Shown here: piece after piece, positions 1-38,454 of the stretch | Position numbering within the stretch: position 1 is the first letter of the stretch | Layout of the letters: every line of letters starts with the position of its first letter | Source of the DNA: Chrysomallon squamiferum | Lineage: Eukaryota > Animalia > Mollusca | Length of the DNA stretch: 64,000 nucleotides | Assembly (NCBI GenBank): GCA_012295275.1 | Contig: CM022670.1 | Location: forward strand, 37,572,001 to 37,636,000 | Direction: 5' to 3' | The notes under the pieces: model-generated | Told to the model about the DNA's origin: nothing | What the model saw: the letters and a program-made list of their open reading frames with translations, nothing else | The model's database searches: none | Program-made: the position numbers and the translations under genes

Positions 1-5
1 GCACA

Positions 6-62
<57 letters not shown>

Positions 63-253: not shown

Positions 254-6761
<6,508 letters not shown>

Positions 6762-6958: not shown

Positions 6959-7012
<54 letters not shown>

Positions 7013-7721
7013 TTTTTTATTTATTTTTTTTCGGGTTTGGTGTAACAATTTCAAAATGTGTTCCTTCATTTCTGAATAATAATCTAAAAAGTGTTTCCTA
7101 TCGCTTATTATCATTATTATTATTATTATTATTTTAAATTAATTAATTAATTTATTTATTGTGCATTGATTATCACCAGTAGACGCTTTTTTTTTTTTCT
7201 TTTTTTTTTTTTGGATAAATAACATAACTGGGTTTATATTATATTTTCAAATTCCTTTCCATCTAAATTTATGAATAAAGAAATAGCCGCAACTGTCGGT
7301 TAAAAGGTGTTATGTAATATCTGCATTATGTCACAGAACACAATTAAACTGCATCTCAGAGGTCGTATGTATAATAATTATAATATATTTTGGTATTTCT
7401 GGCTGTGAGAATACATAGAAAATATATTTTTATATTTGCACCTAAAAACGAGTGAAAGATATTTTAGTCGCCGTGAGCACGAAGTTACCAGGAAACGCAT
7501 ATACTTGATGCATACATCACTGAACTTCGTCGGGGAGATAATCCGGGCAGCTCAACTGATCTGGATTCTTTACATCGCTTTTTCTCCATATTAGATATTC
7601 CATGTTATCCATGTCATTATTATTCCAGTATTCTACTAAATTATAATTACAGTCAGATAATGTATCCTTCATAAATGATAAATATGATTATACGTTGTTA
7701 TCAGAAAAAAAAAAAAAAAAA

Positions 7722-7762
<41 letters not shown>

Positions 7763-7799
7763 CAACACAACACAATAAATAAATAATTTTAATAAAAGA

Positions 7800-8800: not shown

Positions 8801-8801
8801 G

Positions 8802-8870
8802 TGAATGAATGAATGAATATTTAACGACACTCCGGAATGAAAAACATACTGACCACTGGATGTCAGATAA
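8802..8870 (+). repeat. Short interspersed repeat end, (TGAA)n-tatttaacgacac; inverted partial copy at ~9294-9320
   Basis: tgaatgaatgaatgaatatttaacgacac here; gtgtcgttaaacattcattcattcatt at 9294-9320 is the reverse complement of the same motif. Confidence 0.55.
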
Positions 8871-9839
8871 AGATAAATACAATAAAATGGTAAATATTTT
8901 TTATATAATAACTCATGCTCGGATAGGTCGTATTTATTTGTCCCATTCAGTCTGAAGAAAGATCGTCTACCTCAGTGTGAACACACTTTGGTGGATTGCC
9001 ATAATCTTTACCTGATCTGTAACTATATTTAACTACCAAATAAATATGACGAAATCATTGCGATTTCATCCTGAAGTTGTTTAAAAATTTTGAGTTACAA
9101 AATTTATCTATAAATTTGAATTTAATTAAACTTGGATACCTCTATTTTTGCAAGCTCTTTACTGTTTTAATTAATTTTTAGAATGTTTATATATAAAGTA
9201 ATCACCATTTTATTTAATTTACCTTTATTTGAGACCCAATAGCCAATATATATATATATATATACTTCTTCTTTCTTTTTTTTAAGTTCTAGAGTGTCGT
9301 TAAACATTCATTCATTCATTACGCAATCCTGTTAAATGTTTCAGTAAAATTCTATAAATCTAAAGTCTTAAAACAAGTTCAATATGGAAACATAATCTGA
9401 AATATCGTATTAAATTTCCAAAATTTTCTAAAAAAGACCCTGCAATTTTTATTTATTTATTTATTGCAATAATTACGTTTTTATGTCTGTGAATAAATAA
9501 ATAAATAAATAAATAAACAAAAACAAAGATTACTGTTTGTGTATGATTTTTTGCATTGGCAGTTACCGCCTTTGCGCGCATTTTTAAAAGGAAACTACAC
9601 GCAGATAACGAAATAGCTTGGTACGCTAAACCAAAACTCCAAAACTGGTTTATGTGACCAGATTAAAATGACCACTGAAATATAATGTGGTCATTTTAAT
9701 ATTTATTCAACTGTCAAAAGAACAAATCGTAGAAAAAAAAATCTTTATTTAATTTACTAATAGAAGATTACTAATAAATAAATAATTTGATATGAAGGTT
9801 AGCGATATACCATTCTATCGCAACAATTTGTTGTCGTTT

Positions 9840-9983
9840 CGCCTTACCGGAAGTACGGTACCCGCACGCGCGTCGTATAAATTCTTGTCTGTTCCTGTCA
9901 ACGAAAACAACAAATGAATTGCAGAACTGAACAGTGATAATTGCAGGGATATCGCAGAAAATATTTAACTGAAGTTAAAAGGG
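9840..9983 (+). promoter_or_regulatory. Probable EFCAB7 promoter and non-coding first exon
   Basis: Local CpG cluster (ccggaagtacggtacccgcacgcgcgtcg) with ETS motif CCGGAAGT at 9847-9854; candidate donor gtaata at 9984 and acceptor ttttcag ending 10432, just upstream of the ATG. Confidence 0.55.
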
Positions 9984-10455
9984 GTAATAGAATTTAAAGC
10001 GATGTGTTTATATCTTTATATTATTTTTTTTTTTTACTTTTTGTTCTGAAAGAATATATAATACATGATGATTGAATTTTTAATTATAACATTATTAAAC
10101 ACCATGTAATATACAATACAGTAAAATATGTGATAAATGATAAACTGATAATTTTATCATAAAGTTCTGTCGAGGATAATTATATTTTTAGCATAAACTA
10201 TAATTATGTAACAACTGAATGATTTTTACGCTGGGCATTGCATATAATGATATATAAATAAATATAAAAAAAACAACAACAACAAAAAACCACAACAACC
10301 TTGCATGCCCGATACAATAACAACAACAACAAAACATTATGATTATGAAAAAAAAAAAAGAATTTGTATACATTCAAAAACTGTTGTTAAACAAAATATT
10401 TAATTATTTATTTAGTTATTATTTCTTTTCAGTTCTTTGTTGCACAGTCCTGATA

Positions 10456-13400
10456 ATGTCGAGAAGATCAAGTCGCCCTTCCTCTGCTGCCTCCCACAGT
10501 AGTCGGTCATCCAATGCAGATGGTGATTTTAAACTGGAATGCAAAGCAGCTTATCTTACTGTTTTCAATGACATCAGAGATGAAATTACCTCAAAAGATG
10601 ACCTCATTTTAGGTTTGTTTTCTGAAAAGAAAGTGGAACATTTTGATAAATTATATGTATGAATATATGAATTCAAAAAAAGATATACTGAGAAATAGAC
10701 ATGTGCAGAAATAAACCCTGATTGACAAAGTGAGATTGATATTATTGTATTTGTAATAACACATTTCAGAAGAAATATCCTCCCAGATGGGTTGATAAAT
10801 CAAAATTATAAATATTTGTAAAGATTCTGTACAGAATGTACAATGCAGACTTTTTTCTGACTTTCTGCTGGGCAAGTTTAATAAAGACAGAATACATTTA
10901 TTTCTAATATTTGTATTGCATATACATAAAATATATTGTTATATATATTCTGTAATACAAAAAAAGATTGGATTGAATCACTGAATTCCTTAATTCCTTG
11001 TTTGTCAGATTATCTCTTTATATATAATTTTTTCTTTCTTTTCTTGAACAGCTAATAAAAAGTTCATTAATTAATATAGTATTTTAAAATGATCTCAGAC
11101 ACTGTATTTAAACAAATGATCTTTCAGTTCCATTCAATTATTTCCAGTTCTTCAACAAACTGGTCGTAACCCTACTCGACGCACACTAGAGAAATACTGG
11201 AAAGATACAACAGGTATGTGATCTATAAAATAACTAGTTTATATCTTACTTTTGTATGCATTCATCATGCTTAATTTTTTTTTTTTTTTTTGCATATTTT
11301 TATTTCCAGAATGGTAGCACAATAGAAACATTCCCATGTATTAGAATAACATAAACACAGAATATTAACTCTTATTTTATAAATTCCATAGATAATTTTT
11401 GAAATATTGTACAATCATTTTACAAAATATATTAAATATCAGACAGATCCTAATTTACTAAGGAAAATCTTTATCTAACTAATATGTCAAATTGTTTAAA
11501 GTGCTGATTACAAACAAACTAACTTCCTTAAAAAAACATTTGAAATGATTTGACAATTAAATAGAAAGAGAAAGCAATATTTGATTTGTGTATTTCTTGG
11601 ATAGGGATGCCTGTGTGTCCAATATTTTCATTAATTTCACTTGCATATTAATTTTAATTTTATAGTTATAATTTTTATTTAAATACAGTGAGCCTTTAGA
11701 TAAGACAGTGTTGACATTTCTTTTTCAGAGTCATTATCTTTCAATGACTTTGTTGATATATGTCATCATGAGCCTGCTACAACTACAGATGATCTTATGA
11801 AAGCCTTCAGAAAAATTGATGTGAATGGTGATGGTTACTTGTCTGTGAATGAACTGGTTAATACTCTTAGTACAGTAAGTGGTGACACAGCACTCAAGTA
11901 TTCATATTAATCATGATTTGCATTAACTGTTACCTCATTTTTACTTCAGTTCATTGCATCTTGAACCAGTAGAGAAAAAAAAGAAAATGTATTAATCTTC
12001 TTTTTTTTTTAATTATTATTGTAAGGTTTTTTTTCTTTTTTAGGTTTTGTAAACTTATACAATTGTTACTTGAGATTGGCAATATTAAGTTAAAAAAAGA
12101 AACAAACTTTGAAAAGTCTTTCTATGAAATCCTTTCTTTCAGAAAGGAGAAAAGATGAGCCGTGATGAAGTAAAAGCTATTATTAGCGATGTGGATGAAA
12201 ATAAAGATGGTAAATTGGATTATCATGAGGTATGTAACCTGCAATGTCTGATTGATAAGAATGTTACAGAACAGTGTTTCATAACCTTGCTACTAGCTAC
12301 AGATCCACAACAGCTGCAGACTGTTGACTTAAAACTTAGAATTGATAAAACTCCATTATGTCAATTGGATATAACCATTATTATATACCTACAGACACAT
12401 TCATGGCATATTTATTCTTTTATAAATATCTATAGCACCAATTTTACTGAAGCAATTATCTTAAATATAAGATGTGTGTTTTATTTATTGTGATTTGAAA
12501 TAGCCTTTTCCAAATATATGTTCCAAGAGAATTTAAACATTTGTTCTAAACAGTAATTAACTATCCAAATTTTTTTTTTTTTTTTAATTTTGAACATGGA
12601 TTTTCCAAAAGATTAGTGATTATATTAAGAATTTTTTTTTTTTATAGCAATAACTTAATGTAAAATCATTCAGAACATTTTTAACCTGCATTCTCCATAT
12701 TTCTATTTTTTTTTTACACCTTTAGAATCCTTTATACGTTTATTAAATTATTTAATCTACTCTTTTCTAACTACTTAATAATAGTGGTATAGTTTTTAAA
12801 TTTTAGCTCTAAACACAGTCAAATTACTTTTCAAAATTATTTTAATATATCCATTTTCTTTGTATTCTGTTTCAAAAATAAAAAAACATAGTTAAATGGT
12901 GTTGGTTTTTTTCATTCAGCAGTCATTTCCCTACATCCAGGTATAGTTTTATCCTACAATCTGCATATATGTACAGTGTTGCATGCATTGAGCTTATATT
13001 TGTTTTATTCACACACTAAGATAGTTTTTGAATGATAGAGAATACATTGTTTTTTTTTGTTTGTTAACTGATGCTGTACAAATGATGTTTAACGACTCTT
13101 TAAGAGAATCACATTTTCTTTGGCATACACAATATTTTATTTATTTTTGATACAGTGTAATTTTCAATTTGTATAAGAAATTTGATCTTTGCTTTTAAAT
13201 CTCACTGTATGTGTTAATGTTTCAGATGGATTAGATTTCTAATTAAATTTCCATTATTTTCCATTAATAGTAATGTTACGAGATTTTAATGTATTATTCT
13301 TAACATATAAACATTTTTTCTTTTCCTTTTTATTGGAATTTTGGAAATCTGAAACCTTTCCAGTCCCAGGCATTTTGCATAGGCAATCTTCAACCTCTAA

Positions 13401-16400
13401 TAAATTTCACAGATTATATTTCTGAATATTCTTGATGAAATAATAAAAAAAAAAATACCAACATAGGCATTAATAAAATTATTTACTGAATATTTCTGTA
13501 GTTCTGTAACATGGTTATGAAGACGACAGAAGAGGCTAAGAAGATGGCACTGAAAGTGATGGAGAGAAAAGAGAGGAAGAAACAGAAAAGCAGACAGTCC
13601 ATATCCAGCAAAAAAGGTAAATCATACTATGTCACAGTAATCAGTGTTGGTTTAGACAAATGGGCAGTGTGAATGAAACTTCTTGTCTTGCATCCTTTGA
13701 ACAGACCTACATAAAACAGCTGCTGAAAATTTCATTATCACAAACACCTGTTATTTAACAAAAAAACCCAGTATTTCACATTATTGTTTGACATGTATTT
13801 GCTATTCTAAAAGATGATGGCTGGTGATTCAGAAGTAACTTACTTTGTTTAACTGTTTGAATGAAAATTTTGCTTGAGATTCACCAGTAAACCATACTAT
13901 TTAAATTTTAAATAGACCGTTAGTATTGTTTTGTCTTTAAGCATGCTTCTGATGTTATAGGCAAAAGGTTTCAGTGCATTATGATTTTATTTATGACCAG
14001 TTTCTGGTTATAATATTAAAAGGTGAAATAGGTCTATAAAGATAGTCTTGAACTTGTTATTTTATTATTTATTTACTTATTTATTTTTTGTTGTTGTTTT
14101 TGTTTTCATATGATGTAATTTTTTAACATTTAATTTAAAAAATATACATTTTAAGGTTTCAAGAATTTTTTCTTGTTAAAATTAATGGCTATAACAAATA
14201 AAACACTGTTCACTTTTATTGTTAGCACTGGTCTAGTCAGTAATGTTCTTTTTGTCATAATTCTGTGGTAATACTATTACTGATGTTAAGACTGTTTTAC
14301 GTTTTCCTTTGTCAGTGGTAAAAATATAAAGATATATATATATATTTTGCATTATGTTTTACCAATTATATCATTGCATCCCTGCCATTGCAGTATCACA
14401 TTTCATGTGTTGTTTGTTTGGAATTAATTTTATGAATCTATAGAATTACTTTATTTGGTATTCTATTTTTCTTTTTTTTCTGTAAGTGACTGAACTTTTT
14501 TCTGTTTTGAGTAATGTTTTGATTATGCATTTGGTACTTGTTTGACACTGCTGTTTGTATATTTGACTGAAGTGTGTTAAAGATGGCCCTGGTCTGGCAA
14601 ATTACAACAAAACATTACTAATTTATTTTACTTAAGCCCAGTGTATATGAAAATTTAGCCATTATGGTTTTCTGTCATGTAGTCATCATACAGATTTCAA
14701 CTTGAAGAAGATTTTTCAGTAGGTCAGAATATTTTTGCATGTGAGAGAGAAGTGTGTGTGTCTGTTGTATTTGATTTTGAACAATGCAGCTTTAGTTGTA
14801 TTTATCAGTTCAGAACCAGCAAACAACATTTTAAATATCCTCAAATGTTTTTATTAGATGAAACAGAAGTTTCTTCAGAGCAACAAGAAACTAAAGAGGA
14901 GAAAAGTAAGGTGTTCTTCTAACACTGGCTTCTGTGTGGCTTAAGTGATACAGCTTTCCTTTTGCTTTCCTTTATTACTTTTTAATAATTTTTTTCATTA
15001 CTTTTCTTTCTTAATGAAAAGCAAATTGTATTTTTGGGGTATTTTTTAAAGTAAATATCAAAACACTAATCATTTATAGTCACAGGTTTGCATATACCAA
15101 ATATTTAGAAATTGCATTAGGGTCAGTCTGTGTCAAATGACCCAATGGGTTAAACCCGACCATCTCAGATTTTTATGAAACTTGGTATACTTGTTGACTG
15201 GGATCCCACAGCACCAAATCAGTGGTGTTGGAGAGATGGCCCACCGAATTTTTAGATTTTTGGCACCAACCTTAGAACCCTCATATCTCAGGAACTACTG
15301 GGCCAATCTTCATAAAATTGGTATTGTTGAAAAGGCAATATGACAAGGATTCCATATTGGAGTACATTGACCTTTTGACCTTTGCTATGACCTTGAAATT
15401 GACCGTGTGGATCACGTGACCTTGAGAAGAAAAGTTTCCTGGGTGTAACATTTTTTGTTTAGTCACAATAACACCTTTTCAGCCATTAATATCTGATTAA
15501 CTAAAACCTGAATGGGCTAAAATCTCAAAATTCGGTGGGCCATATCTCCCACTCCAGTTTTTCTAATCTACTATTATTTTCATATAATAAACACATATCA
15601 CAATACTGTCCTCAATAGAAATATATCTGTTAAAAGAACACTAAAACACATTCATCTTAAAGGATATAGTTTATATTTGTTAAATGAAGACTAAAACACA
15701 CTAATTTTAAATGATATGGTTTATATCTGTTAAATGAATACTAAAACACACTAACATTAACAGATATTGTTTATATTTGTTAAATGAAGACTAAGACACA
15801 CTAATGTTAAAGGATATTGTTTATATTTGTTAAATAATGAAGACTAAAACACACTAATATTAAAGGCTATTGCGTTTAGTAATCATCTGTTGTAATTCTG
15901 AGCCATATTTTAAAAGATTTTTATCACAAAATATATTCAAGAATACTGGTTTAAAAATTAATTATGTAAAACAAAATTGTATTTTTTTCTAAAATGCATT
16001 CTAGTGCATAAAATAACAAATCAGACTATTAAGGCCCTAAGTTCAAATTTAATTATTATTTTTTTTATAATATTCACAAATTCATTGTTCAGCCAAAATA
16101 TATAACACACACACACACCCAATTTGTATCACAACTAGTCATAAATAATATTTCTTGTATTCAGTTAGAAATATTTATTAAAGGAAACAAAGTCATAGTT
16201 TTTAAAAATATTTATTAACTATAAAACTGTTGAATGGTAATGTGTGTATTTTTCTTTCATTTGCAGTTAGTTAACTGTAGTAATACAATAATGGATTTGA
16301 AGCATATGTTAAAATATTTTCATAGTATTCCCATTACAAAAAAAAAAAAAATATAAATAAAAAGCAATACATTAATATCACCATATAATTATCAGATAAG

Positions 16401-19400
16401 AGTGAAGATGTAACTTCATCAAGGACATCTGTACAATCCAAGAAAGTGAAAAGTAAGGTGTTCTTCTAACAGAAGTTTTTGTGTGGCTTAAATGACATAT
16501 CACAGCATAATTTATATTTCAGTTTAGTTTTTTGCATTTTTAAATACTGAACAGAGCTTCTTCTAAGCAAGATGCAAATTTAAATTACAGACAAACAAAA
16601 TTAGATCTACAATGTTTTATATTTTCCAAAATAATTAATGAATTCACATCCCAATATTCAGTAAGAAATTCCAAGTAATATTTTATTAATGACAATTAAA
16701 AGTTAACATTTTTTTAAAAGTGTTTATTGATATTACAACAGTTAAAAGGTAATGGTTAGTTATCTGAAGTATATCATTTACAGAGACTGAAATAAAATGT
16801 CTTGTAAATCAAAAATGCAGTATAATATTCTGTTACATATTAGAAAAATATAAATAAAGACAATGCTGTTAATATAACTGTGTAATTATTAGATGAGGCA
16901 GAAGATGTAACTTCATCAAGGACTTCTGTCCAATCCAAGAAAGTGAAAAGTAAGGTGTTCTTCTAACACTGGCTTTTGTGTGGCTTAAATGACACAGCTG
17001 CTATTGTATTATTTAAAAAAAAAAATTATGTCATTAATAGCTACAAATCTGTTTAATATTGATTTCATAAGAAATGAATATCTAGATGAGCATTTCCACT
17101 TCAAATTATAAAAGCTAATAATAAAAAAATATATATATATATAATGATAAGAATAACAGTACTGGCAAAAGAAATAATTTTATATATTTTAAAATATTTT
17201 GATATTATCGTAATTCAGATTCCAGTATTCCTAATATCAGTTGAAGATTTTTCAGCATGTAAAAAATTTGTTAATAATTAAATATAATTATTAGATGAAG
17301 GAGAAGATGTAACTTCATCAAGGACATCTGTTCAATCCAAGAAACTAAAAAGTAAGGTGTTCTTCTAACACAAGTTTCCTGTATTAAATTGCTATAGATA
17401 TGGAATTATTTTGTAATGAAATTTAAAAAAAAAAAAAAAAATTCTTAAATTTGAGTGATGTTTTTTAATTAAATAGGCTATCCTTTGTAGGAAATTGTCA
17501 AAGTAAATTTTAAAAAATAATTTTATAGCCAACAGAATCCATAACAAAATTTTGAAATCCATATTAATGTTAGTTTTAAGAGAAAATGGTTCATTATTAA
17601 GATTTTTATATTAATTTTAAATGACAATAATTTAAATCTATGAAAAAAGAAAAGAAGATACTTTAATCAATATATGTAATTATTAGATGAGGAAGAAGAT
17701 GTTACATCATCAAGGACCTCTGTACAATCTAAGAAACTGAAAAGTAAGGTGTTCTTCTAACACAAGCTTTCTGTGCCTTAAATAGTTTTGGACAAAAAGC
17801 TGATTTCTGTTCTTCAACTATTTATGTTTATAATGATATGCATCACAAGAAAGTTTTAACTTTTAAAAGCCAAAATGCTTTTTAAAAAAAATGTTAAATA
17901 AATAAAAATAAATGAACTTGGTATCTAACTGTTCACATTTGAATCATAATATCAAATGAAGATTTTTCATTCTCTAAAAAGTATCCTTATAATTATTAGA
18001 TGAGGGAGAAGATGTAAATTCATCAAGGACTTCTGTCCAATCCAAGAAACTGAAAAGTAAGGTGTTCTTCTAACACTGGCTTACGTGTGGCTTAAATAAC
18101 ATACCACAACATAATTTATACTTCAGTTTAGATTATTTTGGTGTTTATTAAACTGATAGTTGCCTATTGAAAGCAAGTTACACATTTTAATTTAGTGAAG
18201 TAACTTGGTTATTTTTGGTTTGTTTCTCGTTTAATGTAATTTAATTCACAACCCTGTATTACAAACCAAACAAATATTTTATTTATGAAAAATAAAAGTT
18301 ATTTAAAAAAAATTTTTAAAGAGTTTATTAATATTAAAACAGTTGAAAGGTAGTATATGTAATTTTGGTATCAGCTTTTGTTTCATTTCCAGTTAGGTTT
18401 TCTCTTGTATATCATACACAAAGACTTTGAAATAAAATAAATTATAAATAAAAAGTCAATTATAATAAGTATCCTTTTGCTAAACTATAATAAAATAAAT
18501 AAAAGGCAATGCATTAAATATAATGTTTTCTATAATAAAAGAAAGTGTAAAGTAGTATCTAATTCTGGCTTCTGTGTGGCTAATATTTCTTCTTATTATT
18601 ATTATAATTAAAGAAATGAAGATCTTGATATAGATTTAGCTTAAAATTGTGTATAATTATTAGATGAAGGAGAAGATGTAACTTCATCAAGGACTTCTGT
18701 CCAATCCAAGAAAGTGAAAAGTAAGGTGTTCTTCTAACACTGGCTTTTGTGTGGCTTAAATGACACAGCTGCTATTTTATTATTTAAAAAAAAAAAAAAA
18801 AATATGTCATTAGTAGCTACAAATCTGTTTAATATTGATTTCATAAGAAATGAAAATCTAGAGAGCATTTCCACTTCAAATTGTAAAAGCTAATAAAAAA
18901 AAAAAAATATAAATATATATATATAATGATAATAATAACAGTACTGGAAAAAGAAATCATTTTATATATTTTAAAATATTTTGATATTATCATAATTCAG
19001 TTTCCAGTATTCCTAATATTAGTTGAAGATTTTTCAGCATGTAAAAAATTTGCTAATAATTAAATATAATTATTAGATGAAGGAGAAGATGTAACTTCAT
19101 CAAGGACATCTGTCCAATCCAAGAAACTGAAAAGTAAGGTGTTCTTCTAACACAAGTTTGCTGTATTAAACAGCTATAGACATGGAAGTTTTATTTTTAT
19201 TTATTTATTTATTTTAATTTAGATGTTATTTTGGCATTAAAAAGGCTTGCCTTCATAATAAATAAGTTAAAGATAAAAAAAAGTTTTACAGACTTCAAAA
19301 TCCATTATTAATTTTTATTTTACATGAAAGTGGTCCATCATTCAGATTATTCCTGTATTAATATTTAATGAAAATGCTTTAAATCAATTATTACATACAA

Positions 19401-22400
19401 TTATCAGGTGAGAGACTCAGAAATAAAATAACTTAAAAAAATATAAATACAAGACAATGCAGTTAATATAATTATTAGATGAAGGAGAAGATGTAACTTC
19501 ATCAAGGTCCTCTGTACAATCCAAGAAACTGAAAAGTAAGGTGTTCTTCTAACCCAAGCTTCTTGTGTTTTAAAAATCTTTCGTTCTTCAGTCATTTAAG
19601 TTTTTTTTTTTTTACTTTTTATATTTACAAAGCCTTAAAAAGAAATAATAATAATAACTATCTTTTTTTTAACAGATTGTTATGACAGCTAAGAAAATTT
19701 ATTTTAAATATATAAGAAACCATCAGCTGATTTGTAACTTCATTACTAATATTAGTTTTAGGTGATTTTCATCTGTAATTCAAATTCCTACTTTATATTA
19801 ATTGAAGATTTTTCAGTCTGTAAAAATTTAATATAAATTTTATTAGATGAGGAAGAAGATGTAACTTCATCAAGGACATCTGTCCAATCCAAGAAACTGA
19901 AAAGTACGGTGTTCTTCTAACACAAGTTTCCTGTATTAAATAGCTATATACATGGCTTGCCTTCATAATAAATAAGTTAAAGATAAAAAAAAAAAGTTTT
20001 ACAGACTTCAAAATCCATTATTAATTTTTATTTTACATGAAAGTGGTCCATTATTCAGATTATTCCTGTATTAATATTTAATGAAAATGCTTTAAATGTA
20101 TGGGGAAAAATAAAAATCAGTTATTACATACAATTATCAGGTGAGAGACTCAGAAATAAAATAACTTGTAAATCAAAAATTCATTATACTGTTCTGTTAC
20201 ATATTAGAAAAATATAAATACAAGACAATGCAGTTAATATAATTATTAGATGAAGGAGAAGATGTAACTTCATCAAGGTCATCTGTACAATCCAAGAAAG
20301 TGAAAAGTAAGGTGTTCTTCTAACCCAAGCTTCTTGTGTTTTAAAAATCGTTCGTTCTTCAGTCATTTAAGTTTTTTTTTTTTTTACTTTTTATATTTAT
20401 AAAGCCTTAAAAAGAAATAATAATAATAACTATCTTTTTTAACAGATTGTTATGATAGCTAAGAAAATTTATTTTAAATACATAAGAAACCATCAGCTGA
20501 TTTGTAACTTCATTACTAATATTAGTTTTAGGTGATTTTCATCTGTAATTCAAATTCCTACTTTATATTAATTGAAGATTTTTCAATCTGTAAAAAATTA
20601 TATTAGATGAGGGAGAAGATGTAACTTCATCAAGGATGTCTGTACAATCCAAGAAACTGAAAAGTAAGGTGTTCTTCTAACACAAGTTTCCTGTATTAAA
20701 TAGCTATATAGACATGGAAGTTTTATTTTTATTTATTTATTTATTTATTTTAATTTAGAGGTTATTTTGGTATTAAATAGGCCTGCCTTCATAATAAATA
20801 AGTTAAAGATAAAACAAAATAGTTTTACGGACTTCAAAATCCATTATTAATTTTAATTTTACATGAAAATGGTCCATTATTCAGATTATTCCTATATTAT
20901 TTGATGAAAATGCTTTAAATGTATGGGAAAAAAGGTATATCAATTATTATATACAATTATCAGGTAAAAGTCTCAGAAATAAAATAACTTGTAAATCAAA
21001 AATTCGTTATACTGTTATGTTACATATTAGAAAAATATAAATAAAAGACAATGCAGTTAATATAACTGTATAATTATTAGATGAGGGAGAAGATGTAACT
21101 TCATCAAGGTCATCTGTCCAATCCAAGAAAGTGAAAAGGAACACTGGCTTTTGTGTGGTTTAAATAACACAGCTACAATTTTATTATTTAAAAAAAAAAA
21201 TTAAAGTAATTAGTAGCTACAAATCTGTTTAATAACGATTTCATAAGAAATGTAAATCTTGATGTGCATTTCAACTCCAAATTGTAAAAGCTAATCAGAG
21301 CAAGAATTAATAATTTGTAGTGGGAAAAGATATGATTTTAAACATTTCTGCATGTAAAAAATTTGTTTATAATTACATGTAATTATTAGGTGAAGGAGAA
21401 GATGTAAATTCTTCAAGGACCTCTTTGCAGTCCAAGAAAATGAAAAGTAAGGTGTTCTTCTAACACAAGCTTCCCATGGCTTAAATAACTTTAGACTTGA
21501 AGCTGATTTGCATTCTTCAAGCATTTAAGTTTATAATGATATGTATCATAAGAAAGTTAGTTTTTTCTTTCTTTATTTTAATAATAACAATAATAAATAA
21601 ATAAATAAAAATCTTTTAACAAATTATGAAAGCAAAAAAAAAAAATCATTTTACTGACAAAAGAAATCTTACGATTTTTAGCTTCATTGCTAATATTAGT
21701 TCCAGTCAATTTTCTGTTCAGTCCAAGAAACTAAAAAGTAAGGTGGTGTTCTAACATAAATTTCCTGTATTAAATAGCTTTAGAAATGAAATTATTATTA
21801 TTAATATTTTTTTTTTGTAATACAAAAACTTGCCTTTATAAGAAATTGTTAAAGCTAAAAAATAATTTTACAGAAAATGTAATTGTAAGAAGATTTTGAA
21901 TACCATTATTAATATTGGTTTTAAGTGAGAATGGTCCATTAAAAAAAATCTCTTTATTAATATTAACTGACGATATAAAAATTCATTATGATTTTTGTTT
22001 TTCTAGTTAAAACGCTTTAAATATTTTTTCACCTTTTCATAAGCAGCTATTAAAGGTTTTTATTTAATTTTTTTAATTTTTGTTTTATAGATAAATTTTA
22101 TAGACAGATTTCTAACTGCATTATCAGTAGTATTAGTTTTTTAATCGGATCTCTATATTAATATAACAACTGAAGATTTTTTCAACATGAGTAAAAAAAA
22201 ATATTCTCTAAAGTATATGTAATTATTAGATGCATAGAATTCAAGAGATCTTAAACAAAAAATATTCAGACACAGGTTTGTGGTGTGGCTTAAATAGCTT
22301 TAGGAAACACAGTTCTAGACTTCTTTTCAAGAGGCATTTAAATAGTTTGTTTATATACAGTAATTGTTTTTGCTTCATAGAATCCATTCTAGTATTTCTA

Positions 22401-22543
22401 ACCAACAGTTACTAAATGAACCATAAAAAGAACAATATGATCAATATAAATCAATCATTGTTTGTATCGATGTATCTAAATAAATGAGTGAGTGAAATTG
22501 TGGGGTGGTGCCACTTATGTCCACACCAAAGAGGAAACATGTT

Positions 22544-22594
<51 letters not shown>

Positions 22595-25500
22595 AGTGTT
22601 TATATAGAAATTCAGTTGCTGATTTAATTGCTACTTACCATATACAGCAGTTTATTTTGTTTAACAGGATCCAAGGAAAACAGAAAACTGATATTTTCAT
22701 GGAATTGACATAACCTGATTTCCTCAAAAACGTTTGCTTTGTGATGCTGTTTTCTCTACACATTTATTTTTTTTTAAATGTTTTTATTAGATGAGGACGA
22801 GGATGTAGGTTCTTCACGAACGTCTTTACAGGCGGAATCTGTAAACCAGAAAAGTAAGGTGTTCTTCTAACACAGGCTTTTGTGTTGGCTTCACTGCCCT
22901 CCCTGAAACAGCCTTTATCTTCCTTGCTCTTTTTGAAACATTATTTGAAATTATTATATTGTCCTATGGAGTGGTGTGGATTTGAGCTTGTATCTATAAT
23001 CTTTTTTTTTTTTTTTTTTTTCTTTACTTATCAATCATCATCAACATCATCATCATAATAAGATTTTTGGTGTTTAGAATAGAAATCCTATCATAGTTAA
23101 ATTCCCACCCCCCACCCCCGAGATGAGCATGTTTGATGAATTATCAGCTGTATGAATATTTTTTCTATAAACAGGTGAATTAGTAATAAGATTTTCTGTA
23201 GTTCAGATTAGAAATTCCACCATAGTTAAATTTCCCAAAATTAACTTGTTTGATAAAATATCGGCTTTTTATGAGTATTGAGAATTTTTTATAGAAAGCA
23301 TGGAACCATTTTCATTCTTTTTAAACTGGATTACTCAGTTAATATTATCTAATAAATATTAGGTTCTAGATAATTTTACATGGTAAGTAAAAGACATTTG
23401 TGTTAAATTGTTAAGAATATGGTAAATGTCTAGCTTGTATCACAGTAGTCAGAGTACTAGCCACCAGCCACTTTTGATGGTCACATACTAAGAAAGTCAC
23501 AAAGCTTGAAATATCTTTAGCCTATGCTTAAATCGTCATTAAAACTGAATCAAGTAATATTTATAAATGACAAATAGAATGTTCTAATAATTAACAATGT
23601 TTTTTTTAAAATGATTTTTAAAAATGAAAGATTCCACTTATTAATCTGAGAATATAATTTATTAGATGAAGACGATATAAATGCTTCAAGAACCTCCTTA
23701 CAGTCAGGCTCTGTATACATGAGGAGTAAGCTTTGTTGTTTTTTAATTATTATTTTCATTGCTTAATTTTAGCTTCACTGACCAAGATGTATAGCTTTAT
23801 GATAAACCTTTTTGTTTGTTTAGCTAAAATAAATGAAAAATTAATTTAATTGTTTTTTAATTTTTTAATTTTTATATTGTATATTATTTTTTTTTTCATT
23901 TTTTTTTTCTTCAGAATATTTAATTTTTCTTTGTTTTATATAACAAATGCAAATTTTGTGGCTTCACTAACCAAGGTTGAAAACTATTCAGTTTTGGGTT
24001 TTATGGTTTTGTATCATTTTGTTACTTGGCTGTTGCTTTTATTTTTTTATTTTACTTAATTATACTCTTTTCTTTTCCTTTCTTTTTTTTTTTTTTGTCT
24101 GATTGCATATCCTAATATTTGGTGGCTTTGTGTGAAAAACAGTTAATTATATAGGCAGAATATGTTAGGCTTTTTTCATGTGTGTTTGTTTGAATTTCAA
24201 TGCTGGCATATGAATTAGAATTACTAGTTCAGAAATTTGTCAGGTTGTTTAATCTTTGTTTTATTATTATTATTTCATTTGTTTGTTTTATTTATTTTGA
24301 TATATTATACTTGGTGTGTTATAAAAGTTATGTAATACACACATACATATATACATACAGTTAAAAAGTACATATCATTGATAATATTCCTAGAAGAAGA
24401 TGTTTGCTAAAGTTATGAGAAGTATCTGATGGCTAAAAATGTTATATGAATTTAAATTTGTCATTAATAATAGTTTGGTTGGTAGTTCAGCACATGCTCA
24501 TACACATACACACAAATGCACATAAATGTTTACATCAACATTTTTCATTGCCTATACACACTGATTGTCATGGATGTGTATCTTAGACAGAGAGATAGTG
24601 TGTGTGTGTGTGTGTGTGTGATGAATATATGCAGATGTACATGAACATATATGTTCATAACACAAGTATAATTTAGTGCAAAACACTTCAAATGTAATAC
24701 TTCAAATGATATGAAAGTGTAGGTTGTTTTCACATTCTATTTTAAATATTTTATACTTCCTTTGTATGAAAAATTTATTTCAATACAAAATAAATAATTT
24801 CTATTAAATCACTTGATAGTTTTACTATCTTTGAAATAAGCTCAAGGAAAATCTATTATTTTGTTTCAGTTGCATAATAAATGTCACCATTTTTAGTTTT
24901 ATCAATATATTTTAGTTTCCACTCACATATTAGTCTTGAATGTCTTCTGATGCATGTATCTGTATTACTGTAAAGATTTTTTTTTTTTTTTTTTTTTTTT
25001 CAATTCAAAAATCTTTATCTTGTTCACATTTAAGTATCACTACACACTGGTTTTGATTTTCAGAGAGGCAAGGTTCAAGGTCTTCACTTATCAGCATTGG
25101 TATTTTTATTTTTGTTTATTTGTTGCTTCACAGTTTGCTGTTGTACAAGAATTTTCACCAGCACAATAGATTTCTGCTTCAGAGCTAGACATGTTCTGTT
25201 TTTTTGTTAGTTCATCCACTCTAGAATGTTCTGGTTGTTGCTAAATTAATTTTATTTGCATTTTTTGAATCTCATCAAACAGAAGCACAGAAAGTTTTAC
25301 CAAATGTTAAATGTGACTTTGCAGATAAACTGATTTGACATTAGATTCAGATATAATGATACAGTTTATTATAGTGGTAAATAGATAAATAAGTATAAAT
25401 ATACAAAAAATATACATACATACATACATACATATTTTTATTTATTCTTTCTCTATGTTTCAAGTGTTTGTGTGCAGATTTGAATGAAAGAGAAAGAATA

Positions 25501-27084
25501 AATAATATAACACACTTAACAAACAATAATAAAAGACAATAATGATAAAAATAAAATGAATTATAGCATCAGAATAATAACACAGTGTCGTAACTCAAGG
25601 CAGACATTTTATTTAGCACTCCATACTCCATCCAACTGCACAGGTTTTTAAGCACTAGCCTGCACATTTCAGCACATGATAAAAATAACATTACACATCT
25701 CCTGAAGCAGTACAGACCATTTTCATAGTTTACACTGCCAGCACTATAAAAAGATTTCTGCACTAACTAAAACATTCACAAAAAGAACAGTCGAAAAAAA
25801 TAATTGTTTTCAGTCCCGTTCGTTTTTGTTTCTGTTCTGTGCAGTATTCAAAACATGTAATTTATAAAGTTGTTTGACAGTTGTTGTTGTTGTTGTTTTG
25901 TTTTAATTTTTTTCAGACATTAATATTCATGTGTTTATGTTCTAGATATTTGTTATAAATATTTACCAAAAATTTTTACTAATAGAAATAAAAATATAAT
26001 AAATAAATAATAAAGGTAATCATCTTTTTTCAGTTGATGTGATGATTTTTTTTTTTTTTTTTCAGTTCATTTCTGTTTTAATTTCTGTTGAATTTTTCTG
26101 AGTGTTTAATGTGTCCGTAAAATTGTTTAAAGATGTAAAGAAATCATTATCAGAAGGATATTTTAAAATAGCTTCAGTCTAGCACATATTTACTATTGGT
26201 TTAAACCATTTTATTTAACCTTTTTGAATATCATGAAACAGAAGTATTTTAAATGATGGTATGCAGTAAAAAAAAAAAAAAACAACATTAAATTAAAATT
26301 AAGAAACTCTGTGCAGTAAATTAGTGAATTATTCAGTTTGTTCATTAGTAATTAGACACATATCTGAACCTCTAAGTGTGTTTCTACTAACAGTAGAAGA
26401 AGAAGAAAAAAAACTGTGTTTGTAGTGGTATGCAGCTTTCAGCAAAGGTTATAATTTATTTATGCATGTGTTCCTGCTGTTCAAAATATAATAGTGATAA
26501 AAAAAAAAAAAAAAAATTAACATTCAGTGTAAATGAAGAAATTTTGTTAGTGGGTTTAAAACCTCACAGACCAGATAGATATTAATATACATATTAAGAT
26601 CCTTCCTATTTGAAAAAAAAGAAAAAAGATTCTGGATATGTTTATCTCTAAATGTAAGACGTATATCCATAAAAGCCACGTTTAAACAAATTTTGGATAA
26701 AAACATGGAAAAAATCAATGAGTTTGATCATTTTAGTTAGCTTGTGTAGTTTTGAAGTAATATTATAGATTCTTGCAAAGGCTTTTCATAGTTTTATCTC
26801 CCCTCACTGTGGACAGTTTCTCTGGGTACATGTATCCAAGACAGATACCCTTGAATTTTCAGTGTGAAGCATAACTTTTACATCATTTAATTTTGAGTGT
26901 TTGCTTGTCATTTATAATTAACCTGATCTATAAAAGCACTTTAGTTTTAATGATATTTCTAAAATGAAATATTTGCAAGTTGTATAATTTTAATAGATAT
27001 TTTAAAATCAATTCCAAAAGGTTTTTAGAGCAGAAAGTTATGTATTTATATATTTATTGATTATAGAATGTGTATTTTTGTGTA

Positions 27085-27139
<55 letters not shown>

Positions 27140-30108
27140 AGATATATTTTTCTGTAATAAAGTGTTAATGGGAGATAACTTAGAAAAAAGATGTGAAGAC
27201 TGAAATGAACCCTTGCATCTGTGTCTCAAAGATGCACTTGTTTAATTTCGATTTGTTTTAAACAGATGATTTACCAAAGCCTTCCCCAAGAAGTAACAAA
27301 GAGAGAGGGAGACAAGCAATCAGATCTCATCTGCCTGAACCAAGTAATCTGCAGGTTTGTATATAACCTGATATTAGTTTTATATTTAATGGTTTTCACT
27401 AGAAGAGTTCCCAGCTATGTTTTTTCTCTGCGATTTTTAAAGTTGCTTCTGTTTGTTATTTTATTTTATTTATTTATCTTTAAAATAATTCACTTTTTCT
27501 GTTTGTTTCTTTGTTTTTATGTAAACATGTTGCTGTTGTTGTTACTTACTTACACACTTATGTGCTTATAAATCCATACTTACTTTCTTTTATTAAATGA
27601 GTGAATAAGCACCACACTAGCACCAAAATAGCAAAAGAAAATTGTTGACCCCATAACACATTTAGCAATATTAATTTGAAATAAAATAAAATTAAATTAA
27701 ATTAAATTAAAATAAAATAAAATAAACTTTCAGTAAAAATATGGAGATTTTATTTTAATTCAGAAATGGACTCACAATGCTAGTAAAGGCTGTTTCTACT
27801 TGGAAGAAGGAAGCATTATGAGTCACCAGTACACACTGGAGCTTTCAGAGAGTACAAGCGTTTGGATGACAATCGAACCTGTGAGGATTGGAGAAGGAGG
27901 TAAATAAATACAGGATAATAACACACAACACGCTGTGTAACATGTAGATATCGTTCTAAGTGGACATAAATCAATTTTGCAGTTTTCTGTTCCAACCAGT
28001 GCTCCACAATCAGTTTATCAAAGACTGCAATGTATGTTTTTGTCCATGTTACAACCCACTAAAATAATAACACAAATTATTTTCTATTTTGATCTGTCTC
28101 TAGGTGTTGATAAAGATGGAAATCCCATAGATACAATCCTGTTTGTTCTTCGAGATAAACCTCGCTCCCAGAGCCAGAGGGTGGTTACTTTCACAGAGAT
28201 GAGAGATGCACATGGGGTAGGTACACCTTTGTGAATTACACGTGTATATTGCATTCTTCATTGCTAGTATTGTTATTCTTCAGCTTAAAAGAACTGAAAC
28301 GAATCACTTAAGAGATCTGTATTAGAGTATGGTTGTCAGGCTTGAAGTGAATGTAAAAAGTAAAGAAAAATAGTGAGACGGATTTTAAGCAAGATAACAA
28401 TCATATAAAACAGATTTCATGATGGTTGAATTATTACTGAATTATTCACATAAATATATACATTTTATATTAAAGCCATTATTTGAATGTCGAAATTGAA
28501 AGCAATGGTGGTATAATTCTCTGTTTGAATCTCAAATCTGCATTTTAATAAATTGGCTTCTTCGTTAACCCATACTGTTAAAGTTTACTGTAATTACAGC
28601 TTATGCAAAAAATCTGTGCTGTTAATAAAATTAATACTTAGTTCTTCTTAAGCTAATGATCAGAAAATTACTGGTGTAATATCTGCAGTAGCTTGCAACA
28701 CAAATATTTTGACTGTTCATAGCTTATCTTTTGTTACACAGAAATTTGGAGTTCGGTGTGACTTGGATGCAGGGAAGTACAAACTGATTCCATTCTCAAC
28801 TGGATGTCGACTGCGACCGAGCAGACATCATTCGAAACAGGATGCAAAGCTGGTAGATAAAGATAAACACAACAAGTTCATTCTCACTAAGGCTTTCAGG
28901 TAAGCTGGAAGTTTTTAATCGAGGAATGTTTAATGATAACGAAGGAACAGTCCAAATATGGTTTTCTGCAGCCAAGCGATCACCTAATCTGTCTGTTGTA
29001 AGACAGCAGCCTTTGTTTTTGACAAAGTAATACAATAAAATAGAAGTCCATGATTTTATTTTGTGTTCACAAGTATAAAAACAAATTCCTGACTCACTGA
29101 GAACATGAGTAACTTCACATTTCTGTCAGGTTTTCTTAACATTTCTGTTTATGAAATGACATTACAAACAATAGGGAATAATGTTTGTTAATTTAAAAAA
29201 AAAAATAAGATGACACATAGAAACTATTAATAACTAGAAAAACTTAAAAATAATAAGAATAATAATAATAATAAAAAGACACATAGTTTTAAAACTGAGC
29301 CAGGTTTTCTACATGGTATTTTTTTATTTATTTATTTATTTATTTTCTTTTATACAAAACTGTGTGTTGAGAGTGAGTGTATGTGCATGCGAGTGTGTGT
29401 CTGTGTGTGAATGCACATTATTTTCTTTCTGTCTTTCTTACTATTTTTTCACTAACAATATTTATATTTTTTTTTTTTTTTTTAAATTATTTATTTATGT
29501 TTTTGTTTTAATATTTACTGACACCTTCATACTTTTAACACTATTCAGACGGGCACTGGAGGAAATATTTGAGATGGTTGACTTGGATGGAAACGGACGG
29601 TTAAGCCGAGAGGAGTTTAGTCTGTACACGTGGAGAACTAGTGGAGAGGGGGTAGCCGATGAAGAATGGGAAGTGGTTGAAAGTAAGACTCATAAATCTG
29701 TGTGTGTGTCCACCAAACCAGAATACTCTTCCATTTTCCAGATTATTTGCTTGTGCTTTTAGCATTAACATCATTTTCCTCAACATTTACAACAGCCAGT
29801 ATGTGTGTGTGTGTGTGTACATGCAAGTGTGTGTCTGTGTGTGCCTATAACTAGTCTGGGTGCATGTGGTTGTGCCTATGCTTATATTCTGTTTTGGTGT
29901 TATTTCCAGCGAGCTGTGATCTGGTAAATGGTGAGATCACAAAGGAAGGTTTTATTCACCTCACAGAAATGGAGGCTCAGGAGACTGAGGGAGAAGAAAA
30001 AGAGTTGTGGATCACTTTAGAGAACATGGGCTACAACAAATCTCTTGATTTGTGCGAGGTAATTTGTTCAGCAGTAATCCACTTCAATTTTTTTTCTTAA
30101 CTTTTTTT

Positions 30109-30142
<34 letters not shown>

Positions 30143-32132
30143 TTTTTTTATTATTACTATTAAAAAAAAGTATTATTTTTTATTTATTCTTGTTGTTTTG
30201 GGGTTTTTGGGGTGGAGGTGGAAATTTCAGACAGAAATGTAAAAGGTATTCTTGAAGATATGATTACAGATACATGACTGATTTGTTATTTTTATATTTC
30301 TATTTAAAGAATGATTTTTAAAAATTTATTTTTGGATCAATTTTTTCGGATTTTCATTAATGTGCACACTGACATTTTTGTTTGGTTTTGTCAAGAATGA
30401 TAATGCCATTTTTTTAAATTATTGTTATTTCCTGTATTTAGGCTTGTCCCTTTCAATTAGATGTATATACTGAGGAATGTGACGATGCAAAACTGTTGGT
30501 GTCAACTCTTGAACCAACTGATGCTCATGTAGAAGACGCAGTGTGTGAAACGGTTCTAGCAAAGGTAATCGTTATGTTTCATAGATTTTTTAATCCTTTC
30601 TGTTTACTTGTAATCCTAAACAAAAGAAATCTAATAATTATTACTGTAACTGTAAAACACACAGACACCGACCAGGTCCAGAATTTTAAGATGCATGATT
30701 TTAAAAATATTTTAAAAAATTGTTTTCTCACATGAAGTCTAATTTGTATATTTTTTTACATGTATTTTGCCATATATATATATATATTCAACAAATACTG
30801 TAGTTATTATTGTTGCTTGTCTCTAGGGTGACAGTAAAAAGGTCAAGGGAAATTCAGATCTCACACTATACAGCTATATAGGAGATGCCAGAGCAAGCCT
30901 GGTTCTCAAGAACAATGTAAGTTTATCTGTGGACATGTGATATAAACTCAGAGTACAAACTAGACGTAAAGCAATATAGTGAGAAGAACACTCGAAATCT
31001 CAATCTTTTCTAAGTCACATCAGATGTATCAAAGATGTAAAGTTATAATTAAAAATATATAATTCGCATATTTTAAATTTTACAGATCGGGTATCATGTA
31101 TTCTTCAGAACAGTTAGGTTTATTCTCCATGTCCCAAAATTACATCCCATGTTTCAGATTTGTAACATTTAAAAATTGTTAAAAATTGCTCAAACTTGAG
31201 CACAAATTTTGGATTAATGTTAAAACAGAAACATCTTTCTTAGTATGTTGCAATTTTTTCACTAAGTCTCACATCCAGATAAGTGTACGAATGTATGATC
31301 ACTGTCTCTGCTGAAACTGATTGAGCTTAAACAAATTTATATTTGACAACACAGAGTAGATTTTTATCAACAGTCCTGGTTCTGCTGTTTATATAGTTTG
31401 TAAAATAATCTGAAATGCTCTCAGAACATTGCCTCCAACAGGTAATATTTTAACCTCTGTGTTTCAGTCATCTTCACAACTCATCTGTAGAACTGGACTG
31501 CAGCAACAGTCGTAACTGTGTGAGTAACCAGAGCAAGCTTAAACATACAGTATCAGTTCCAGCCCATGCCACAGTTGTAAGTACCAAAAAATAGATCATG
31601 CCCTTTTTTATTTTTTTTTATTTTTTTTTAGTTGACCAACTGAAACAAAAATACAAACTAGACAGTCCCTCTGATCTTCAGAATCTTAGGATGTCAAAAA
31701 AAAAAAAAAACAAAAAAACATCACTAGGGTGTCTGATATTGTAAGAAAATTTTATTTAAGCATAAGGAAAACATACAAGAGTGTTGCATTGCATCAGCTC
31801 TGTTTTAATAATATAACAGTGGATATATATCTGTGGTTAAAATCTGACACCGTTTTTTTGCCAATTTTGATAGCCATCTAATTGAATTACAACAGTAATT
31901 ATTTCCATGGGTCTGAATACATTTTTAGAAGTTTGTTTATATTTTCTGTGATATTTAAAGTTTAGAATTATTATTTCAGTGTATGATACATGTATGTATG
32001 CAAGTTATTCGGATTTCATACAGCTCCTTTTGATTTGATGAATGTTTTGTTTTGCAGGTTGGTCTTCATCTCATTCCAGCTGATGAGAGATCAGAGTGGT
32101 TAGTTCAGTGTACAGAGAGGATTGTTAAATAG
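10456..32132 (+). CDS. EFCAB7: EF-hand calcium-binding domain-containing protein 7 (ciliary EvC-complex tether in vertebrates)
   Basis: Exons 10456-10612 (ECKAAYLTVF), 11148-11213 (LQQTGRNPTRRTLEKYW), 11729-11874 (EF loop DVNGDGYLSVNE), 12143-12229 (KGEKMSRDEV...DENKDGKLDYHE), 13502-13616, [array 14858-23725; 25064-25099], 27266-27354 (EPSNLQ), 27764-27899 (KWTHNASKGCFYLEEGSIMSHQY), 28104-28216, 28742-28899 (DLDAGKYKLIPFSTGCRL), 29549-29682 (IFEMVDLDGNGRLSREEF), 29910-30058, 30442-30564, 30827-30916, 31468-31576 (apparent 1-nt frameshift), 32058-32132 (stop). Motifs match my recollection of vertebrate EFCAB7 along the whole length. Confidence 0.93.
13340..13399. mobile_element. Terminal fragment of a Tigger4/MER46-like DNA transposon
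   Basis: aaatctgaaacctttccagtcccaggcattttgcataggcaatcttcaacctcta resembles the end of the 61538-61890 element. Confidence 0.5.
15117..15560. mobile_element. Non-autonomous DNA-element remnant with internal inverted repeat and TGACCTT-rich core
   Basis: ggagagatggcccaccgaatttt (~15230-15252) pairs with aaaattcggtgggccatatctcc (~15527-15549); repeated tgacctt words; GC above the intron background. Confidence 0.6.
15623..15872. repeat. Minisatellite, ~5 copies of a 50-bp unit
   Basis: atatttgttaaatgaagactaaaacacactaat.ttaaa.gatat.gttt repeated head to tail. Confidence 0.85.
21081..21137 (+). pseudogene. Array pseudo-exon: body intact, donor removed by a short deletion
   Basis: 57-nt body after taattattag is followed by ggaacactggc instead of gtaaggtgttcttctaacactggc. 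Confidence 0.8.
25064..25099 (+). CDS. EFCAB7: Candidate 36-nt phase 1-1 EFCAB7 exon, (K)RQGSRSSLISI
   Basis: Strong acceptor ggttttgattttcag, donor gtattt, open and in phase with its neighbours; GSRSSLIS resembles the array's SSRTSLQS. Confidence 0.6.

Positions 32133-38362: not shown

Positions 38363-38454
<92 letters not shown>

Follow-up and report, generated by a model that had tools for sequence, protein, structure and literature searches.

The EFCAB7 gene and its exon array

The stretch of DNA analyzed here (the window) comprises 64,000 nucleotides of contig CM022670.1 of Chrysomallon squamiferum and carries a gene which, judged by sequence similarity along the protein, is EFCAB7, as an earlier sequence-only reading of the window had named it. 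The closest named protein is EFCAB7 of Gigantopelta aegis (79% for exon 28742-28897), and in an alignment by eye the exon translations track this protein from end to end. Pfam EF-hand matches were obtained for 3 of 12 exons and an EF_assoc_2 match for 1 of 12, and a fold search returned calmodulin-like matches only. Beta-rich domains, candidates for the two ECH beta-sandwiches of which the last binds EVC2, are present in the predicted structure of the G. aegis protein, to which this observation is confined. Early in the last domain (exon 31468) there is a +1 frameshift within the window, which is likely an assembly slip; a search for a micro-exon restoring the frame before this exon gave seven weak candidates, none of them convincing.

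Between exon 5 and exon 27266 lie 15 exons (Table 1), each preceded by AG and followed by GT, a multiple of three in length, free of stop codons and in phase 1 at both ends. One exon has 48 nt, twelve have 57 nt, one has 63 nt and one has 60 nt, together 855 nt or 285 aa, and the start-to-start distances are 313-1538 bp. All 15 had been proposed in the sequence-only reading and were found where it had placed them, and the exon model bears out that the exons at both edges of the array share phase 1. The homologous exons have been copied along with their introns and keep the same phase at both ends, as expected for tandem duplication. The twelve 57-nt copies differ from each other at 2-12 nt (mean 5.6). 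The Haliotis cassette and the final G. aegis repeat are, by sequence comparison, likely orthologous to exon 23666-23725, and 25064-25099 is a sixteenth symmetric exon beyond the array.

Table 1. Positions of the EFCAB7 exons, array copies and intron element in the window
Feature	Positions	Strand	Basis
EFCAB7 coding region, modeled with 16 exons outside the array	10456..32132	+	79% G. aegis match, EF-hand Pfam matches
Exon 5, last before array	13502..13616	+	Ends in phase 1
First array exon (48 nt), acidic and diverged, S-R-x-S lost	14858..14905	+	AG/GT, frame; indirect RNA join to exon 5
57-nt copy	16396..16452	+	AG/GT, frame
57-nt copy	16893..16949	+	AG/GT, frame
Invariant intron element (example)	16956..16967	+	Donor-flank comparison; same in 14/14 donors
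57-nt copy	17295..17351	+	AG/GT, frame
57-nt copy	17687..17743	+	AG/GT, frame
57-nt copy	18000..18056	+	AG/GT, frame
57-nt copy	18664..18720	+	AG/GT, frame
57-nt copy	19077..19133	+	AG/GT, frame
57-nt copy	19479..19535	+	AG/GT, frame
57-nt copy with a single change, at donor +4	19847..19903	+	AG/GT, frame; donor comparison
57-nt copy	20250..20306	+	AG/GT, frame
57-nt copy	20607..20663	+	AG/GT, frame
Broken copy, body intact, donor deleted	21081..21137	+	Copy alignment; RNA-run contig crosses deletion without gaps
57-nt copy	21390..21446	+	AG/GT, frame
Broken copy, 3' half and donor left, 5' half and acceptor lost	21713..21737	+	Copy alignment
Decayed copy with in-frame stop, acceptor flank retained	22230..22275	+	Read by eye
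Array exon 14 of an older type, 63 nt	22791..22853	+	AG/GT, frame
Array exon 15, 60 nt, no invariant element	23666..23725	+	AG/GT, frame; relatives' proteins
36-nt symmetric exon, conserved mollusc cassette	25064..25099	+	Exon model and mollusc protein comparison
First exon after cassette cluster	27266..27354	+	Starts in phase 1

Two statements of the sequence-only reading have to be amended. That the exon lengths differ only by whole codons is right for the intact copies, but three broken copies, absent from its list of the array, had been overlooked. The insert does lie behind the EF-hands, but not directly, as the G. aegis model predicts a long intervening helix. The linker encoded by the array is serine-rich and has no proline, and each 57-nt copy encodes an acidic patch, a run of the form S/T-x-x-S-x-x-S and a basic patch. 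By motif match alone the runs are putative casein-kinase-1-type sites. With the G. aegis X1 model as a proxy, in which pLDDT is below 50 at residues 192-245 over the cassettes, the linker is predicted to be disordered.

Contig coverage and coding constraint

An array of this kind could be an assembly expansion of fewer true copies, and the region is repeat-rich and AT-rich; in another part of the gene the assembly has likely slipped. We compared short-read contigs of runs X1-X3 and X5 (X4, one of the five, was excluded) with the region 13400-22040, which contains 13 of the 15 array exons. The contigs of X5, possibly the same sample as the assembly, cover 30 of 30 bins, and several of them span copies with their own flanks at a depth of about 29-56. 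In addition, contigs of the RNA runs match separate array copies, and the copies and their introns differ throughout the array. Since contigs cover these 13 of the 15 exons, we do not regard the array as an assembly expansion, which has only a minute probability.

The RNA evidence consists of contigs from one study, among the matches listed. Exon 5 is covered without mismatch in all three RNA runs compared. A 2374-nt contig of run X2 runs through exon 5 and cannot hold 7 of the 13 array exons compared, although its length does not identify which short isoform it represents. This contig, together with the optional use of the homologous exons in relatives' models, makes it highly improbable that all 15 exons are constitutive and give one fixed 285-aa linker, even though the frame is open throughout and the copies show coding constraint. 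RNA contigs of two runs stop 4 letters past exon 5, at the point where the starts of the array exons diverge, and one contig of run X3 enters exon 14858 with an overhang fitting a join to exon 5 and extends from this exon 25 nt into the intron. The RNA contigs thus indicate skipping of array exons and, indirectly, the joining of exon 5 to 14858. Several array exons have no RNA contig in single runs, which we did not count as evidence of silence.

A dN/dS-type check among the twelve 57-nt copies gave a pN/pS of 0.26, that is, coding constraint overall. There are 14 synonymous and 10 non-synonymous alleles (p 0.0005-0.008), and variable sites fall on 10 of 18 third positions versus 8 of 36 first and second positions. 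In 13 exon bodies no indel was found, versus roughly 16 expected from the intron rates (a rough estimate). The 57-nt copies as a set are under coding constraint. Among the sister pairs, the four youngest have a pN (0.033) close to the intron rate (0.041), so that for young copies taken singly constraint is not detectable. The copies have also been mixed, with 10 of 21 column pairs failing the four-gamete test, and by gene conversion an older signal of constraint can be carried into young copies.

These observations bear on the possibility that only the older exons (14858, 22791, 23666 and 25064) are used and that the twelve 57-nt copies arose by unequal crossing-over, are for the most part silent and have been homogenized by gene conversion. 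The youngest pairs, with pN no lower than in introns, and the three broken copies would fit such an origin, as would the acceptors of the 57-nt copies, whose pyrimidine share is low (0.47-0.59 versus 0.59-0.76 in 14 other exons). Likewise, among the RNA matches listed for 13400-22040 none joins another exon to a 57-nt copy or two such copies to each other; the pieces over these copies are all unspliced, and one contig carries a rearranged array unit. Silent copies would, however, not be expected to keep a pN/pS of 0.26, twelve bodies without stop or indel and an invariant intron element, and the G. aegis models chain their own repeats. We therefore consider widespread silence unlikely.

The invariant intron element and the mode of splicing

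At donor +7 to +18 lies a 12-nt intron element that contains CUAAC and is invariant behind all 14 donors which carry it; it is absent behind array exon 23666-23725. The adjacent positions, donor +19 to +30, occur in 13 variants, and CTAAC is found at none of the 15 other (non-array) donors. In 5 of the 14 copies GUGUG follows the CUAAC element. Quaking sites have the form ACUAAY, unlike the UCUAAC contained in the element. According to PMC1331982, CUAAC downstream of donors is enriched in mouse at muscle- and brain-included exons, and by analogy the invariant element is a candidate tissue switch for splicing. A hairpin pairing the acceptor with the element was rejected, since over 15 copies the pair probability never exceeds 0.03. 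About half of the folds contain a local 5-bp hairpin over the element, with uncompensated outer changes.

Reading through the donors gives S-K-V-F-F-stop in 13 of 14 copies and S-T-V-F-F-stop in the remaining one. Such short tails could mean that the copies are alternative last exons for truncated proteins with EF-hands only, the element being kept for its coding content, and the X3 contig running from 14858 into the intron could be such a transcript. But this contig is accounted for by a splicing intermediate, and the element shows no synonymous change while the sole change nearby is non-synonymous, so that we think this explanation very improbable.

In Dscam1 many duplicated exons stand in a row and are mutually exclusive. 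The sequence-only reading had left open a cassette of this type, with a single copy per transcript. A conserved element beside every copy does resemble selector sequences, and the donor-proximal CTAAC is similar to the steric distant branch points in the OGDH exons 4a/4b (PMC7969005), which are also duplicated exons in a row. However, each intervening intron has 8-69 AG dinucleotides after the element, the AG-free zones being 13-105 nt, which is incompatible with a distant branch point. Nor did a docking partner emerge (16 tests; the best outcome, reached in two, was 1 of 20 shuffles). Both a steric distant branch point and a docking site were thus ruled out for the array. As all 15 exons are multiples of three, NMD cannot enforce single inclusion; the copies are 88% alike, so little diversity would be gained, and relatives' models are additive, G. 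aegis chaining four copies. Having failed the tests of docking site, branch point and frame, mutual exclusion has become very unlikely.

Optional, combinatorial use, the other option of that reading, is the likeliest mode, given the skipping in the RNA contigs and the additive models of relatives. We favor, with a probability of roughly 60%, a tandem-amplified optional exon whose copies are spliced additively, none to several per transcript, lengthening a disordered Ser/Thr-rich linker. One exon with its flanking intron would have been amplified in tandem, starting from an exon that is optional in the models of related snails, and the included copies would lengthen the linker that connects the N-terminal EF-hands of EFCAB7 to its C-terminal beta-sandwich half. 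Most copies would commonly be skipped in the sampled tissue because of their weak acceptors. A STAR/Quaking-type protein may bind the CUAAC element at donor +7 to +18 and so, in some cell type, favor the joint inclusion of many copies, and the number of copies would set the length of the linker, its charge pattern and its number of phosphosites.

The linker in relatives and comparison with known systems

Of 20 proteins tested, four, from G. aegis and three Haliotis species, carry a cassette homologous to the array unit (none of 1000 shuffles scored as well), whereas the Pomacea and bivalve cassettes match weakly (12-857 of 1000 shuffles as good), and by pairwise scores no match is present in the bird and fish EFCAB7 linkers (96 and 103 aa). 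A profile HMM of the units matched G. aegis only, in 2 of 22 proteins; since HMM shuffle values are meaningless for rows without a match, we relied on pairwise scores for homology. The repeat had no match in metagenome contigs, and none of 1334 candidate short ORFs carries it.

In the RefSeq models of G. aegis EFCAB7 the cassette is skipped, present as one copy or chained as four copies, the two four-copy models being 5'-incomplete. Of two Logan proteins, one has 590 aa and the other 608 aa, the difference being one 18-aa cassette in the linker. RefSeq model isoforms reach X18 in Haliotis, X16 in Pomacea and X20 in Mytilus edulis, with further examples in Mya and Mizuhopecten, and in the models mollusc linkers range from about 46 to more than 300 aa. 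The array had been called lineage-specific: this may apply to the amplification to twelve near-identical copies, but the exon itself is an older optional cassette shared with Haliotis and G. aegis. Nor is linker variability the novelty of one lineage, as the models of other molluscs already vary the linker with dissimilar cassettes.

The cassette cluster of other molluscs resembles the array in its position in the protein, its additive optional pieces and a recurring G/S-S-R-x-S-L motif; unlike the array copies, these cassettes are mutually dissimilar. Among the other proteins compared only G. aegis has a near-identical repeat, with 4 x 22 aa versus 12 x 19 aa here. The array can be seen as such a cluster caught growing: older linkers hold dissimilar pieces, and here one has been freshly amplified. 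Gene models of other molluscs also differ in the length of this spacer, and the array is an extreme case.

The exons of titin PEVK are small, symmetric, duplicated and optional and encode disordered sequence. The EFCAB7 repeat differs in having no proline, and a mechanical role is known on the titin side. The class of mechanism, duplication of symmetric mini-exons, is already known; our literature search found no paper on an EFCAB7 exon array. As described by Schad, Kalmar, Tompa 2013 (PMC3632108), disordered modules arise from tandem-duplicated symmetric exons and share with the array the small exon size, internal duplication, predicted disorder and optional use, whereas the copies here are young, near-identical and inside a 600-aa ciliary adaptor. 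Like the mouse muscle and brain exons (PMC1331982) and C. elegans unc-60, regulated by ASD-2 and SUP-12 (PMC3469465), the array has CUAAC close behind the donor, followed by GUGUG in some copies. The exons regulated in those systems have repeats of CUAAC, in contrast to a single one per copy here, in a putative binding element, and the unc-60 elements repress a 3' splice site, unlike the inclusion role proposed here. The array and its strictly kept intron element offer a natural series for how duplicated exons inherit regulation and how a disordered linker gets tuned.

Vertebrate EFCAB7 has the orthologous domain order in common, and the tether role rests on mammalian data: EFCAB7 and IQCE tether EVC-EVC2 at the EvC zone (PMC10413113, citing Pusapati 2014). 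If long forms are made, they would give this ciliary tether a feature controlled by splicing and phosphorylation which is absent from the bird and fish proteins compared. It is conceivable, though speculative and rather doubtful, that in molluscs the EFCAB7 linker is a splice-tuned phospho-spacer, and that here it acts as a "digital dial": through the regulatory element duplicated behind every copy, a single splicing factor would switch in as many as 15 repeats and thereby set, per cell type, how far a Hedgehog-related ciliary tether reaches and how many phosphosites it has. EVC2, IQCE and EFCAB7 were all found in two annelid transcriptomes.

The exon array and its reality in DNA

All fifteen small exons proposed from the sequence alone have AG/GT ends, a length divisible by three and a stop-free reading in phase 1, and together they encode 285 amino acids. 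The flanking phases were also read correctly, exon 13502-13616 ending and exon 27266 starting in phase 1. A search with exon 28742-28897 returned two proteins among three candidates, both Gigantopelta aegis EFCAB7 (79%), which confirms the gene assignment and points to a likely gastropod source related to that species; EF-hand families are matched by 3 of 12 exons. The 15 intact copies of the sequence-only reading stand; three broken copies had been overlooked (see table). Exon and intron were duplicated together, often in two-exon blocks, and array intron pairs reach up to 98% identity. Copy 14858-14905 has a 12-nt stretch in common with the 57-nt unit, which by eye it reads in a different frame, and carries the same donor element.

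The array is real DNA and, over the aligned part, not an assembly expansion. Contigs were aligned to the region 13400-22040, in which 13 array exons out of 15 lie. Those of sequencing run X5 (likely DNA, possibly from the same sample as the window) cover 30 of 30 bins and span single copies with their own flanks, and contigs of the RNA runs also match separate copies. One RNA contig (X2 record 12; window 19340-20052) links the intron that follows copy 19847 with a unit of the 19479 type, an order or allele absent from the window. This junction reflects allelic variation or a rearrangement of the array and hints at array polymorphism between animals.

Broken copies and further features of the window
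Feature	Position	Strand	Remarks
Broken copy	21081-21137		donor absent
Broken copy	21713-21737		5′ half absent
Decayed copy	near 22230		read by eye
High-copy repeat	15100-15560		first array intron; summed contig depth >200000 in run X5, ~460-1020 in RNA runs; joints linking opposite strands; resembles a MITE or comparable element
50-bp minisatellite, five units	15622-15872		adjoins the high-copy repeat
Extra base	31468-31490		near start of second-last EFCAB7 exon; frame shift relative to G. aegis; due to a slip in the assembly or to a loss-of-function allele, which would truncate the last domain
ORC1/Cdc6-type gene	34000-42600	-	3′ of EFCAB7, tail to tail; AAA and lid domains
Exon with KY-like immunoglobulin domain	48242-48943	+	PF23265
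Decayed stretch	7850-8800		by eye like a retroelement reverse-transcriptase end; no Pfam match in the one frame tested

Constraint on the copies and their use in RNA

The 12 intact 57-nt copies have a mean pN/pS of 0.26, with 14 synonymous and 10 non-synonymous alleles (p 0.0005-0.008 depending on the mutation model). Of 18 codons, 10 are variable at the third position, and first plus second positions vary at 8 of 36 sites. No indel was found in 13 exon bodies, where about 16 would be expected by a rough estimate from five intron pairs (22 gaps per 80 substitutions). The coding constraint on the copies is real. It may partly predate the latest duplications: pN in four young sister pairs is 0.033, close to the intron rate of 0.041, with pS at 0.087 (the sum omits a fifth pair that aligns poorly), and the four-gamete test fails for 10 of 21 column pairs.

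The five runs found, all in contig form, include four RNA runs from a single study; three RNA runs and X5 were aligned. X2 record 9 (2374 nt, depth 16) matches exon 5 (13502-13616) exactly and continues for 1497 nt. Its bin depths rule out 7 of the 13 array exons of the aligned region and leave 6 possible; if this contig reaches the stop, the cassette space would be at most ~320 nt, compared with 855 nt for the full array. X1 record 1 stops 4 letters beyond exon 5, and so does X3 record 16. Since ATGA opens exon 27266 and 13 array exons out of 15, which diverge at the fifth letter, these ends are an indirect sign of branching into two or more downstream exons, which a SNP could mimic. X3 record 17 enters 14858 with 24 unaligned letters plus AG, and then runs into 25 nt of intron; 26 and 4 make 30, the expected overlap of 31-mers, 31 being presumably the contig k-mer size. 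This overhang fits exon 5 joined to 14858, indirectly, as its letters are not displayed.

At the 57-nt copies the RNA pieces among those listed are all unspliced (51 joints and 2691 pieces lie beyond these), and use of these copies in mature RNA is a prediction. We favour the reading that an older optional exon was amplified, truly and under constraint, and that the copies are likely used additively (probability about 0.6). That they are mostly silent is possible but less likely.

Donor positions +7 to +18 are invariant in 14 of 14 copies, even in 14858 and 22791, which are diverged. By contrast, +19 to +30 shows 13 variants, and the third positions of the exons are free to vary (Fisher p 0.0015). 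The element is missing at 23666, and CTAAC occurs at 0 of 15 other donors. In the 57-nt copies the acceptors contain few pyrimidines. CUAAC 3′ of donors is reported as enriched at mouse exons included in muscle and brain (PMC1331982), and in C. elegans ASD-2 and SUP-12 have been described as bound by CUAAC with UGUGUG (PMC3469465). We propose that the element is protein-bound and co-regulates the copies, any candidate factor being a guess. A steric distant branch point, as described for OGDH (PMC7969005), was rejected because there is no AG-free zone, and in a search for docking partners no candidate stood out.

Age of the cassettes and the protein linker

Nine RefSeq models of G. aegis were compared. 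X6 and X7 skip the cassette region, X4 and X5 contain the 36-nt exon, X3 one repeat, X1 and X2 the 36-nt exon plus one repeat, and the 5′-incomplete X8 and X9 four consecutive repeats. An extra optional 7-residue piece directly precedes exon 5 in 4 of the 9 models (proteins P0002-P0005). Exon 23666 and the last G. aegis repeat share 75% identity. The cores are 88% identical among units of the window and 86% among G. aegis repeats 1-3, versus 59% between the two sets, which would fit separate expansion or homogenisation.

Among the best 120 of 619 homologues, linkers differ in length by added cassettes: 47-187 aa in Haliotis, 60-158 aa in Pomacea, 76-225 aa in Littorina and, by a slightly longer measure, 247 aa in scallop and 318 aa in Mya. 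Logan proteins of 590 and 608 aa, whose linkers are identical to those of Pacific oyster, are set apart by a single 18-aa piece. In shuffle tests on 20 proteins the 23666 unit outscores 1000 of 1000 shuffles in four (G. aegis and three Haliotis). For Mya, Mytilus and Pomacea the match is weak (12-43 per 1000 shuffles), and there is none in the remainder. Among gastropods and bivalves, 10 of 13 match exon 25064 with at most 2 of 1000 shuffles scoring as well; 0 of 7 others do. Because of these matches and the variable linkers of relatives we take the cassette cluster to be old and the near-identical amplification to be its new part.

Tandem-duplicated symmetric exons encoding disorder are a described class (PMC3632108). 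Titles and abstract openings of the EFCAB7 papers listed (40 of 117) hold nothing on mollusc splicing, though supplementary gene lists could mention the gene; the sole match for EFCAB7 with mollusc concerns annelids. EFCAB7 is reported in a sea anemone ciliome (10.1101/153437) and two annelid transcriptomes (PMC9695228), and in mammals it is described as tethering EVC-EVC2 together with IQCE (PMC10413113; PMC11889548).

In the G. aegis X1 protein model the cassettes lie in residues 192-245 with pLDDT <50, with a long helix on one side and the first beta domain on the other. Of 270 residues in the insert, 84 are Ser/Thr, 51 acidic and 55 basic, and none is proline. The CK1 consensus is given as primed pS/T-x-x-S/T or an acidic cluster upstream (PMC4032983). 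Of the 15 units, 13 contain S/T-x-x-S/T-x-x-S/T and 14 contain R-x-S, and phosphorylation of the linker is predicted.
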